Source: Eledone cirrhosa (Eukaryota). Taken from it: a stretch of 64,000 nucleotides of DNA. Shown in pieces: positions 1 to 56,210 of this stretch. Position numbers and translations under genes: made by a program. How positions within the stretch are numbered: the first letter of the stretch is position 1; every line of letters starts with the position of its first letter. The stretch is from NCBI GenBank assembly GCA_964016885.1, contig OZ024743.1:143778001-143842000 (forward strand). Reading direction: 5' to 3'. Under the pieces are notes generated by a model. It had not been told where the DNA came from. It worked only from the letters and a program-made list of their open reading frames with translations, and did not search any database.

Positions 1-1022
1 AGTCAACACTAGTGTCACCTTAAGATTTCTATAATAATATTATTATTACATGCCCTAATAATTACCATCTTGATTACCCTTATTACATCTTTTTACCCCC
101 AATTACATCTTTATAAATATGCATTACTTGGACTGATATGTGTATATATATATATCCTTATATATACGTCTCTTTTATATATATTTTTATATATATTTTT
201 GTATATATATTTTTGTGTATTTTATATGTTGTACGTATATCACTTGTTGAACATAGCTTGATAGCTTATGCATTTGCCAGTCTCATCTTTACCCACACCT
301 TCCTTTATGGTGTATATTTTACTCCATTTTTTTTGGTGTATTGTTTTATTTATCTTCTGGTGTATATTTTACTTTACTTTATTTTATTTTATTTTATTTT
401 ATTTTTATCTTTTATCTATTTTTTATCTATTTCTTATCTATTTTTTATCTATTTTTTATCTATATTTTATCTACCTCTTATCTATTTTTTATCTATCTCT
501 ATCTCTTAACTTGTGCCCATCCGTCTATGATATGTTATTTGTATAAGTGTATACTGTATGTGTTGCATACGGGTGCTTGTGTGTAGGTGCATGCGGGTGC
601 TCATGCTTATGCATATACTTGTATGTAGCTGTATGTTAACGGAACCCTGCCCAACTGTGAGTGATAACATTTCTTATTTTTTATTTTTATTTTTATTCTT
701 ATTTTTATGTTTATTTTTATTTTACTCTTTTCTTATTTTACTCCTTTTACTTTACTCTTTAAACTCCTCCCAACTTATGGTATCCCCACATATATTCTTC
801 TGTTTTGGCTTTGTCAATGCTTGTATACTATGTATTTACTCTTTATGCTCTGAAGAGTCCCACTTCTAGTGTGGACGAAACACTGTTAGCAATTAAAGAT
901 ATACCTATGTTCTAAGCGCTCTTTGTTGTTAATTGTATTACGGCTCTGTCCTCTGACATTGAGCTAACCATATACTGCCTATTTGATAAGTGGAGTGTTA
1001 CACACTCCCAATTCTCTCCCTT
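1..1022 (+). mobile_element. 3' part of a non-coding PLE-derived element (pseudo-LTR with HHR and structured tail), ending in (TA)n
   Basis: HHR at 841-898 and tail stem at 943-964. Region 841-1020 is homologous to 29829-30010. Confidence 0.65.
841..898 (+). ncRNA. Minimal type I hammerhead ribozyme
   Basis: Stem I ctttatgct/agca(at)taaag, CTGAAGA at 850-856, stem II gtcc-cac..gtg-t-ggac, GAAA at 877-880, stem III AC-act-GT, cleavage triplet GUU. Confidence 0.8.
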
Positions 1023-1253
1023 ATATATATATATATATATATGTGTATATATGTATATATATATATCTATATATATCTATATATGTATATATATATATAT
1101 GTATATATATATATATGTATATATATATATATATGTATATATATATATATATGTATATATATGTATATATGTATATATATATATATATATATATGTATAT
1201 ATATGTATATATGTATATATATATATATATATGTATATATGTATATGTATATG
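1023..1253. repeat. (TA)n/(TATG) microsatellite
   Basis: Direct reading. Confidence 0.98.
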
Positions 1254-1326
1254 TACTAATTTTCATAGAAAAAGCATATAACGATATGTGCTTTTACAAT
1301 TCTCCAGAGAAGCCGGAAGATGGGTA

Positions 1327-1371
1327 AATATTGCTGATGAGATGTAATAACATCGAAACTAGTCCAATATT
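1327..1371 (+). ncRNA. Minimal type I hammerhead ribozyme (canonical core)
   Basis: aatattg-CTGATGA-gatgt(aata)acatc-GAAA-ctag-TC-caatatt. Palindromic stem III ACTAGT, GUC site. Confidence 0.92.
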
Positions 1372-1795
1372 CCTGTCTGGCCCTCTGCAGAATAGAGGAA
1401 ATGTGTTTCCTTGAAAACTCGTATGACTCTAAAACCCGGTCCGTCTGTGTGGTTACATACAGACTAGCTGACACTCACTGTAAAGTGTCTAGTGAAAAAC
1501 TGAGTACATGTACATATGTATACATGTGTGTATTTATATGCATACTAATACTTCCGTATACATATGTAGATGTACACTTTAACTTAATTGTTTAAGCGTC
1601 AGTCATACAAAAGTGAGTTAGAAGCGAAACGAAATTTAATTTCGTTTCGTTATTTGTTTTTATCGTTTCCGCTGAACCGGTGCGTACAATGACTCACGTT
1701 CTATGCAAATTGGTCTACCCACTACTAATTTTCATAGAAAAAGCATATAACGATATGTGCTTTTACAATTCTCCAGAGAAGCCGGAAGATGGGTA

Positions 1796-1840
1796 AATAT
1801 TGCTGATGAGATATAATAACATCGAAACTAGTCCAATATT
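1796..1840 (+). ncRNA. Minimal type I hammerhead ribozyme, tandem copy
   Basis: Same as 1327-1371 with one stem II mismatch (gatat/acatc). Confidence 0.88.
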
Positions 1841-2060
1841 CCTGTCTGGCCCTCTGGAGAATAGAGGAAATGTGTTTCCTTGAAAACTCGTATGACTCTA
1901 AAACCCGGTCCGTCTGTGTGGTTACATACAGACTAGCTGACACTCACTGTAAAGTGTCTAGTGAAAAACTGAGTACATGTACATATGTATACATGTGTGT
2001 ATTTATATACATACTAATACTTCCGTATACATATGTAGATGTACACTTTAACTTAATTGT

Positions 2061-3620
2061 ATATATATATATATGTATATATGTATATATATATATATAT
2101 GTATATATATATATATATGTATATATGTATATATATAGATGTATATATATATATGTATATATATATGTATATATATATATGTATATATGTATATATATAT
2201 ATGTATATATATATATATGTATGTATATATATGTATATATATATATATGTATATATATATATATGTATGTATATATATGTATATATATATATATGTATAT
2301 ATATGTATATATATATATATGTATATATATGTATATATATATATATGTATATATATATATATATGTATATATATATATATATATATGTGTATATATATGT
2401 ATATATATATATGTATATGTATATATATATATGTATATGTATATGTATATATATATATGTATATATATATGTATATATATATATGTATATATATATGTAT
2501 ATATATATGTATATATATATATATGTATATATATATATATATATATATATATATATATATATGTATATATATATATGTATATATATATATGTATATATAT
2601 ATCTATATATGTATATATATATATATATATATATATATATATATATATGTATATATATATATATGTATATATATATATATGTATATATATATATATGTAT
2701 ATGTATATATATATATATGTATATATATATATATGTATATATATATATATATATATATATATATATATATGTATATATATATATATATATATATATATAT
2801 ATATATGTATATATATATATATATGTATATATATATATATATATATATATATGTATATATATATATGTATATATATATATGTATATATATATATGTATAT
2901 ATATATATGTATATATATATGTATATATATATATGTATATATATATATATATATATATATATATATATGTATATATATATATGTAAATATATATATGTAT
3001 ATGTATATGTATATATATATATATATATATAATATATATATATATGTATATATATATATATATATATGTATATATATATATGTAAATATATATATGTATA
3101 TATATATGTATATATATATATGTAAATATATATATGTATATGTATATGTATATATATATATATGTATATATATATATATATATATATATATATATATATA
3201 TATATATATATATGTATATATATATATATATATATATATGTATATATATATATGTATATGTATATATATATATGTATATGTATATATATATATATATATG
3301 TATATGTATATATATATATATATATGTATATATATATATGTATATATATATATGTATATGTATATATATATATATATATGTATATGTATATATATATATA
3401 TATGTATATATATATATGTATATATATGTATATATATATATGTATATATATATATGTATATATATATTATATTATATATTATGTATATATGTATATGTAT
3501 ATATATATATGTATATATATATATATATGTATATATATATATGTATATATATATATATATGTATATATATATATGTATATGTATATATGTATATGTATAT
3601 ATATATATATATATATATGT
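2061..3620. repeat. (TA)n/(TATG) microsatellite array
   Basis: Direct reading. Confidence 0.98.
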
Positions 3621-54903: not shown

Positions 54904-54995
54904 ACATATTACATATGTTTCTTCGTCGATCAGCTCGAGGCAGGATCTGTTACGGATCGAACCTGACTCTGCACTTGAAGGTTCCTCAGATATGT
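54904..54995 (-). ncRNA. Type I hammerhead motif with extended stem II
   Basis: acatat-CTGAGGA-[~61 nt, partly paired]-GAAA-catatg-TA-atatgt. Palindromic ACATATGT. Confidence 0.65.
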
Positions 54996-55270
54996 CTTGT
55001 GGATTCAAAGTATTCTATCGGATTCAAAACATTCTATCCGTTCCAGCCGCAGCAGCTAATATCATCCTGTTATTACGGCTTTTTCATTGGTTCAGTAGTT
55101 CAAACGTCACCGCCATCCTTTAACCACTCAAATTCAGCCACTGGCTGCAGTCATTCACACGTAACCTATCAATCACCAAATTACTACTATGTTACCACAG
55201 ATATACATATATCTACCATTACACATGTCTACACATATACAAATACACACATACATATATACATACACAT

Positions 55271-55316
55271 ATATGATGGCTGCCCCCTCGTTATCGAGTA
55301 TGGCCATTGCACAATG
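55271..55316 (-). mobile_element. Short 3'-tail remnant related to the 13845 family
   Basis: Minus strand TGGCCATACTCGATAACGAGGGGGCAGCCATCAT vs TGGCCGTACTCGAAAACGAGTTGGCAGCCACCAT. Confidence 0.6.
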
Positions 55317-55785
55317 AAAAAAAATAAAAAAATAAATAAAATAAAAAAAATAAATAAATAAATAAATAAATAAATAAATAAATAAAAAAAAATAATAATA
55401 ATAATAATAATAATAATAATAATAATAAATAAATAAAAAAAAAAAAAAAAAAAAAAAAGGGAAAAGATATATATATATATATACACACATATATACACAC
55501 ATATATACACACATACATATATACACATATATATATCTATATATATATAAATTACACAATAATCAAAGCTATGTTCAAATCATTTTATTGCTGACAATCG
55601 TTTCTACCAAACTTTCGTATAGTTGTATATAGTGTATTCATAACTATAAATAATATTATAGCTTTCACCGTATTTTTGAAATATGGTGAAAGCTATTCTA
55701 TTTTCTAATTTCAGACCTGCTCACTGTTTCAAAACATACTTACTTATAAATAATATATATATATATATATATATATATATATATA

Positions 55786-56099
55786 AGGCACATGGCTTAG
55801 TGGTTAGAGCATTGGCCTTGCAATCGAAAGGTTGTGGGTGATGTGTTGTTTCCTTGAGCAAGACACTTTATTTCACATTGCTCCAGTTTACTCAGCTGTA
55901 GAAATGAGATGATAGGGACTGGGGTCCTTATCATTCCACTGCAAAGTGGCGTGGAGGTGCCACGGCAAAAAAAGCACCCAGCACTCACTGTAAATGAGGC
56001 TGGTGTTAGGAAGGGCATCCAGCTGTAGAAATCAAGCCAGAATCAGTTCCCGTCCCACCCTTGCAAGCAGGGAAAAGCTCACGTATAATGAAATAATGA
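55786..56099 (+). mobile_element. tRNA-derived SINE (same family as 39336-39676; B-box region deleted)
   Basis: Sequence match. Confidence 0.88.
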
Positions 56100-56117
56100 A
56101 ATATATAAATTTATATT

Positions 56118-56210
56118 CCGGCTCTGTAAAACATCTAATGTATTTACATTGAGCTATTTTTCTTACTGGTTATAAGGTGGTAATGAATTACTGACCTTTC
56201 CTGTTTATAA
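56118..56210 (+). mobile_element. Solo structured tail related to 13345-13440
   Basis: GCTCTGTAAA...TTTACATTGAGCTA...CTTACTGGTTATAAGGTGGTAAT. Confidence 0.7.

Follow-up and report, generated by a model that had tools for sequence, protein, structure and literature searches.

Twin bulged hairpins at the insertion ends of Hydra-type Penelope-like elements: a probable reverse-transcriptase-binding RNA

Penelope-like elements (PLEs) of the Hydra clade encode a reverse transcriptase (RT) with a C-terminal GIY-YIG endonuclease, a CxCx5C linker motif, and CxxC and CxH motifs, and are generally short (<3 kb), as a tendency and not as a strict criterion, according to the accessible portions of the describing paper (PMC8557442). 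For the PLE Poseidon_Ac, two internal RT start sites downstream of the hammerhead ribozyme were found in vitro to bound the element "tail"; both strands of the target were cleaved and extended, the reaction required RNA lying 3′ of the first site, and in the accessible text of the report the binding motif was left unidentified (PMC11167929). The present analysis concerns a 64,000-nt stretch, hereafter the window, of the Eledone cirrhosa genome (assembly GCA_964016885.1, contig OZ024743.1, positions 143,778,001 to 143,842,000 of the forward strand), and in it a small bulged hairpin near the ends of Hydra-type PLEs, which was compared with its counterparts in 92 loci outside the window.

Six copies of the hairpin had been reported in a preliminary description made from the sequence alone, and all six were recovered: 943..964, 29931..29952 (with a TC bulge), 11132..11214 (with a long apical insert and an ACTC/GAGT outer stem), 13348..13381 and 56121..56154 on the plus strand, the last in a 5′-truncated copy of the 13348 family, and 30672..30593 on the minus strand. 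A pairing-aware pattern ([G/A]CTC, a T-led 2-nt bulge, a matching GAG[C/T], and at least three inner Watson-Crick pairs) matched the window seven times, against a mean of 0.57 and a maximum of 5 in 200 dinucleotide shuffles built from its 48,480 non-microsatellite bases. The seventh match, 11535..11558 (+), is new, with an ACTC/GAGT outer stem followed by the canonical ACT, and a partial eighth copy at about 56470-56500 (-) has its motif 5′ strand deleted. The six copies fall into three families, 943/29931 (191/228 aligned bases identical), 11133/30671 (155/180) and 13348/56121 (87/105), and the new copy makes a fourth, so that the window holds four independent cases. The bulged stem forms in all six by RNAfold, with weak single-sequence folding z-scores (-2.3 to +0.2).

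Every window copy with upstream context lies 26-77 nt after a type I hammerhead, at a PLE end. Hammerheads with stem I and a palindromic minimal stem III precede the copies at 943, 29931, 11133 and 13348 by 55, 55, 77 and 50 nt, respectively, the first two being minimal type I hammerheads at 850..887 (+) and 29838..29875 (+), and a truncated one, seen by eye, precedes 11535 by about 26 nt; the element carrying the 943 copy ends at about 1021. The carriers had been taken for otherwise dissimilar elements; all are ends of Hydra-type PLEs with a hammerhead upstream. The constant 2-nt bulge and variable apex of the preliminary description were borne out, and only a 2-nt bulge fits the outside variants. 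Its flanking signals fared less well: TACTG...ATAAG is present in four copies as claimed but is local, ATAAG occurring in 3/28 and TACTG in 2/28 outside families, and was rejected as part of the general motif; the terminal hairpin is family-specific; and the placing of the copies before a TA array has to be relaxed for the 13348 copy, which stands about 115 nt ahead of its array and not directly before it.

The window contains one whole head-to-head Hydra-type PLE insertion, unit A (3621..11262), with both ends in (TA)n. It is read as a single insertion because 9435-11128 is the reverse complement of 5309-3621 (1639/1657 aligned bases identical). Its 5′-truncated open reading frame (ORF) P0001 (7570..9435, minus strand) was annotated from motifs and homologs (101 at E≤1e-10) as an RT with a C-terminal GIY-YIG domain. 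A Pfam search of P0001 gave zero matches, and the clade call therefore rests on motifs: the CxCx5C linker, CxxC and CxH patterns are all matched, and these columns are invariant in the homolog alignment (CxxC and CxH around conserved E and N). P0001 is truncated before the N-terminal RWK and DKT motifs, for which the homolog consensus has RW and ADKT. Judged by these motifs, the element is a Hydra-clade PLE. At about 3.9 kb from stop codon to end, much of it microsatellite-like, it exceeds the size tendency of the clade, and its N/K/T-rich insert of about 100 aa recalls the N-rich inserts described in the accessible part of PMC3846280. A selenocysteine insertion sequence (SECIS)/Naiad reading was dropped, since the ORF lacks an in-frame stop and encodes an endonuclease at its C terminus. 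A sequence search of PDB with the Hydra profile gave nothing meaningful, and viral contigs yielded no relatives.

The two arms of unit A end at different points. The minus arm, with the ORF, the 3′ untranslated region (UTR) and a type I minimal hammerhead (3694..3828), ends at 3621, equivalent to 11128 and 4 nt short of the motif. The plus arm (9435-11262), with a type I minimal hammerhead with long loop II (10921..11055, predicted cut after 11055), passes through the motif to an end 134 nt farther on. The former point, 11128 (+), 4 nt ahead of the outer stem, is here called site 1 and the latter site 2. The position of site 1 had been predicted beforehand and was then seen both in the arm ending at 3621 and in raw reads compared with 10320-11262: other family copies end here, (AT)n following 11128 in 2 contigs of a second organism and in 433 and 462 reads of two runs, some of these reads possibly coming from the locus at 3621. 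Two further observations concern this element. The microsatellite-like DNA at 4490-6378 and 9435-10310 is part of its 3′ UTR and was copied into both arms, and loop II of the hammerhead holds about 84 extra nt (10943-11028) in both arms, which many family reads skip.

The outside loci (78 from metagenomes, out of the best 80 of 523 confirmed, and 14 from genome bins) were picked by a C-terminal alignment of 14 of the 101 homologs, blind to the motif. A hammerhead core lies ≤900 nt from the ORF end in 72/92. The motif has the form GCTC-stem-TN bulge-GAGC-RCTNT and occurs twice, as motif 1 and motif 2, between hammerhead and start codon; among 75 hammerhead units with ≥100 nt downstream, 18 had two motifs, 29 one and 28 none. 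An ORF start comes next in 17/18 two-motif junctions. The preliminary description had called the motif 3′-terminal in the RNA, and this was not upheld, since the motif is doubled in tandem junctions and followed by an ORF start: it lies within the PLE tail rather than at a free 3′ end. The spacing is 36-67 nt from hammerhead cut to motif 1 (n = 49, about 51 nt typical), 39-59 nt from motif 1 to motif 2 (n = 18) and 15-28 nt from motif 2 to ATG (n = 17); one-motif copies reach a microsatellite 26-46 nt past the motif (n = 14). Among the 28 units lacking a motif, 15 enter microsatellite, and the other 13 comprise, among others, doubtful cores as well as copies whose end is in DNA of another kind.

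Viewed from the ORF, a strict motif stands 8-45 nt before the start in 28/31 cases, and two motifs in 21/31; the three exceptions are two pattern artefacts, in which the motif can be made out by eye, and one compensated GCAC/GTGC variant. About 12 motif bases are nearly invariant, most of them paired, as is the R-C-T-N-T word downstream. The motif appears to be specific: in a small sample of 20 loci with Poseidon-like RT it followed a hammerhead once, in a neighbouring Hydra insertion. Published Hydra consensi from coral, sea cucumber and copepod carry it by eye, clearly or with one mismatch in 4/6 new consensi of PMC8557442 File S7. Hydra-2_Amil, to which the end of locus L116 is near-identical, Hydra-2_Ajap and Hydra-1_Crog (one mismatch) extend past motif 1 before they end; Hydra-1_Ajap starts 2 nt ahead of motif 1, stops short of it at its other end, and has motif 2 ahead of ATG; Hydra-1_Amil and Hydra-1_Obim showed no clear motif by eye.

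For the covariation test, motifs were picked by their outer words alone, with no pairing required, which yielded 38 motif-1 variants in 31 families. Inner pair 1 is Watson-Crick in 38/38 variants (23 C-G, 15 T-A) and 31/31 families, with G-U never seen; pair 2 is Watson-Crick in 31/38, with four pair types, and pair 3 in 25/38. Each of these levels was reached in 0/20000 shuffles, and the covariation sought in the preliminary description is thus significant for the motif-1 inner pairs. A model-fitted alignment agrees with this result. A bulge length of 2 fits 38/38 variants, whereas each other length fits 0-6 of them. In a quick protein tree, pair 1 switched between C-G and T-A at least 5 times, 2 of the switches being forced by strong branches; with so few switches, the covariation is repeated, yet rests on fewer events than rows. 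In motif 2, inner pair 1 is kept in 14/14, and the basal helix is significant (cognate -10.8 versus swapped -6.5 kcal/mol, 0/20000, 14 families); this helix is family-specific and leaves a 15-37-nt A/T-rich loop 5′ of GCTC. The strand test favoured the sense strand in the motif-1 inner stems only (G-T versus A-C, 6 versus 0). Covariation, constant bulge and variable apex together support the structured cis element that had been proposed. It belongs to no named family as far as Rfam reaches, with 0 matches in the window at gathering score and 0 at E≤1 in 8 junction-bearing outside loci.

Where insertions end was examined by ungapped comparison of 15 microsatellite-ended copies, each with a longer sister. 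Nine stop 0-13 nt before motif 1 and six stop 2-16 nt before motif 2; ten of the 15 stop ≤6 nt short of GCTC, and the longer offsets involve indels. Among further comparisons, two break off at 3-4 nt and four at contig edges. In a hammerhead-anchored search over the full set of loci, later additions included, 12/12 distinct head-to-head units consist of a short arm ending at site 1 and a long arm running through motif 1. This count excludes six rows whose anchor fell within an ORF, two rows that were duplicates, and two from the window with a different type of end; in one unit (L035) the end of the short arm is not in microsatellite. The ORF-bearing arm may be the short one, as in unit A, or the long one, as in L081. 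The one-sided tail is seen further in L104 and in window units C and D, described below. The 14 nt upstream of the motifs are 76-79% A/T, and the stretch 5′ of the hairpins contains TAT in 27/31 and 12/13 families. The window elements, too, are inserted into (TA)n.

We consider it probable, at roughly 0.65, that the twin bulged hairpin is an RT-binding RNA which fixes two internal start sites, one per target strand; among the roles suggested in the preliminary description, RT or ribonucleoprotein (RNP) binding is the best reading. The element protein would read the invariant GCTC/GAGC stem, the bulge and RCTNT, while its GIY-YIG domain would nick both (TA)n strands. On an unprocessed tandem transcript, one nick would prime at site 1 and the other at site 2, the TAT stretch providing microhomology with the nicked (TA)n target, so that the start would fall a few bases 5′ of each hairpin. 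Two 5′-truncated complementary DNAs (cDNAs) would then join head to head, and the tail would consist of motif 1 and the spacer leading up to site 2. More tentatively, and with odds somewhat below even, the two hairpins may load two RT-endonuclease protomers on one transcript for concerted twin priming on opposite (TA)n strands; if so, a head-to-head insertion with a tail at one end would result from one reaction.

Several observations weigh against RT binding with two internal starts. The inner pairs of motif 2 past the first show no significant pairing, the motif-1 basal helix is weak (44/20000, 29 families), the strand test is itself weak, and the basal helices discriminate neither RNA from DNA nor sense from antisense. 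Covariance models built from outside sequences rank the window copies high, at E-values of 0.08-10; in the models R1 and R2, window copies make up 5 of 12 and 6 of 13 hits, near the top yet not significant, and the long-insert pair (11133/30671) is missed. With scores this weak, the case for homology of the window copies is made less by score than by where they lie, what they are linked to and how their elements end. The RCTNT word, nearly invariant elsewhere, is missing from six of the seven, the exception being 11535; no window family showed a motif 2, and among window units just unit A is linked to an ORF. On the side of the ends, in ten comparisons the match was lost in non-microsatellite DNA 23-30 nt ahead of the G, which we read as subfamily divergence, one comparison runs 15 nt into the motif, locus L012 apparently has a single motif before its ATG (171-236), and larger, low-agreement loose read ends at 10850 and 11088 are unexplained. 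The biochemistry of internal starts, moreover, comes from another clade, Poseidon, with a different sequence.

The strand tests leave room for a single-stranded DNA (ssDNA) form of the hairpins, which makes it the main rival, though an unlikely one: in cDNA or a displaced strand, GIY-YIG would bind the hairpins, cut nearby, and resolve a tandem intermediate into site-1 and site-2 ends. In the accessible text, Craig et al. attribute the tail to endonuclease-mediated resolution (PMC8557442), and Frangieh et al. cite earlier work in which the Drosophila virilis tail was needed for endonuclease recognition (PMC11167929). The duplex signal is about equal with DNA parameters and on the antisense strand, and the lack of G-U at inner pair 1 would also suit DNA. 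Against this, the 6 versus 0 excess of G-T over A-C favours the sense strand in the motif-1 stems, and internal initiation by Poseidon in vitro gives tail ends with no resolution step (PMC11167929). The near-fixed distance between ends and motif, together with the dozen nearly invariant bases, could alternatively reflect RNA cleavage just 5′ of the motif, directed by a small ribozyme or a host nuclease signal and making template 3′ ends at both sites; one tRNA-like D-arm sequence even fits the search pattern. Cleavage of this kind, the new ribozyme first proposed included, is nevertheless only a minor and improbable rival: most of the invariant bases are paired, neither a conserved unpaired core nor a conserved cut-site base was seen upstream, Rfam offers no family and ARAGORN finds nothing, copies ending at site 2 would have to remain uncut at site 1, and initiation inside the RNA can do without cleavage (PMC11167929).

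About equally improbable is a function of the motif pair in translation or stability of the uncapped RNA left after hammerhead cleavage, with the A/T-rich ends arising through (TA)n microhomology. Motif 2 lies 15-28 nt before ATG in 17/17 junctions, and the A/T content of the 14 nt upstream would be in keeping with this; the clustering of ends ≤6 nt from two separate GCTC words would be left unexplained, as the spacers are A/T-rich throughout, and so would the pattern of one arm per site in 12/12 units. Shared ancestry or chance, with no selected structure, could account for the weak single-sequence folding scores and weak model E-values in the window, but is largely refuted by the compensatory changes, which recur across 31 families in spite of otherwise variable flanks, and we give it hardly any weight.

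Three further units of the window show the same arrangement. Unit B (12679..13497, right end approximate) is a head-to-head pair. Its left arm stops 3 nt short of GCTC, at the position corresponding to 13344, and its right arm has both a CCGAAGA-variant hammerhead (13259-13297) and the motif at 13348..13381. The tail of this unit (13381-13497) is unusually long, and about ten pre-motif bases recur near 13455, possibly a decayed second site. Unit C (11416..11606, plus strand), overlooked in the preliminary description, is a fold-back with the truncated hammerhead; its short arm stops 5 nt short of the hairpin at 11535-11558, and a second copy, with the deleted motif 5′ strand, is at 56432..56617 (-). 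Unit D (30545..30737, minus strand) is a short fold-back with the motif at 30672-30593, of the 11133 family, and its short arm ends 4 nt before ACTC.

At another hammerhead, 27145-27185 (-), the element reaches (TA)n about 50 nt past the cut with no motif, and is probably a site-1-ended arm. A second class of hammerhead-bearing PLE ends (14545-15580, 24536-25605, 21351-21625 and 29190-29440) has a different terminal word ending in AACAATAT, present in six copies and common to two dissimilar families; in units 14545-15580 and 24536-25605 one arm is about 55 nt longer, with a tail devoid of the GCTC motif. The window also has a fragment of a Poseidon-like RT, at 22825-24150 (-). The region 1254-2063 is a 469-bp tandem repeat (99% identity over 341 bp) with a type I hammerhead per unit, and is retrozyme-like. 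Long interspersed nuclear element (LINE) copies with a PHD finger after the RT domain were seen at 17657-20794, 51035-52792, 31594-33302, 39890-41593 and 62330-64000, the two best being 98% identical.

Among the outside loci, L010 contains a perfect fold-back inside the motif (1169-1250), and L108 has motif 1 of two subfamilies in series, 96 nt apart (1515-1640). Many PLEs of animal type, inserted in (TA)n, occur in genome bins G001-G004 (L079-L141); these bins carry bacterial labels, and the PLEs most likely come from host DNA that entered them. The tRNA-like D-arm that fits the motif pattern (GCTC...TA-GAGC-A) is in L076 at about 2270-2300 (-). A tRNA or tRNA-derived element was rejected as an explanation of the motif, the resemblance being just this D-arm-like word match and ARAGORN giving 0 genes in the window, L027, L034 and L076, and a resemblance to twister, pistol, hatchet or hairpin ribozyme cores was considered and dropped; Rfam lent it no support.

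PLEs are the closest mobile relatives of telomerase, and the motif bears on how they choose a template and on the origin of their inverted pairs and one-sided tails. If the reading of concerted twin priming is correct, the doubled hairpin would be the first RNA element to be defined as the recognition signal of a telomerase-related retroelement RT, and a general account of PLE insertion architecture would follow. A short, covarying, doubled hairpin that predicts both ends permits a precise mutational test and offers a minimal RNA for structural work, and it is a marker for the true ends and the non-autonomous partners of Hydra elements. Should priming follow a moved motif, it would also be a compact handle for starting an RT inside an RNA.

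The elements described here agree with the Hydra clade, as set out in the accessible portions of PMC8557442, in the C-terminal GIY-YIG domain with linker motifs, the hammerhead in the pseudo-long terminal repeat (pLTR), the (TA)n targets, the inverted units, and the tail that is often at one end alone. Those portions annotate the hammerhead only and describe neither the twin hairpins nor their tie to ends, and PLE tails have been quoted as 30-40 bp, versus 57-83 nt in the outside loci and 134 nt in unit A. A Poseidon-type tail, an optional extension between two ends that is usually on one side, is what the 12/12 head-to-head units have. The Poseidon_Ac ORF, however, starts inside the hammerhead, whereas the Hydra-type ORF start comes after motif 2, and by eye the printed Poseidon_Ac template contains no GCTC/GAGC-RCT pair but a different 3′-bulged hairpin after its 111-118 site (accessible text of PMC11167929). 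The hammerhead 26-77 nt before the motif is of the minimal type I found in PLEs and non-LTR retrozymes, and the motif is a structure separate from it, unmentioned in the accessible portions of the respective papers (PMC7229834; bioRxiv 10.64898/2026.07.22.740005).

The element class, its hammerhead, the one-sided tail and internal initiation are thus already known. No description of the doubled bulged hairpin, or of the fixed position of the ends relative to it, was found in the literature or Rfam, although Repbase entries, figures and subscription papers may hold one. Structured RNA fixes the RT start in the R2 3′ UTR, in LINE 3′ stem-loops, in hepadnavirus epsilon, which is a bulged stem-loop, and in the template-flanking helices of telomerase RNA. 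The Hydra motif differs from these in being located 3′ of the proposed start, in not being copied from its own site, and in its tandem duplication, the two copies of which would serve the two target strands. Judged from sequence comparison, the doubled hairpin would be a new form of a known kind of RT-recruiting element.

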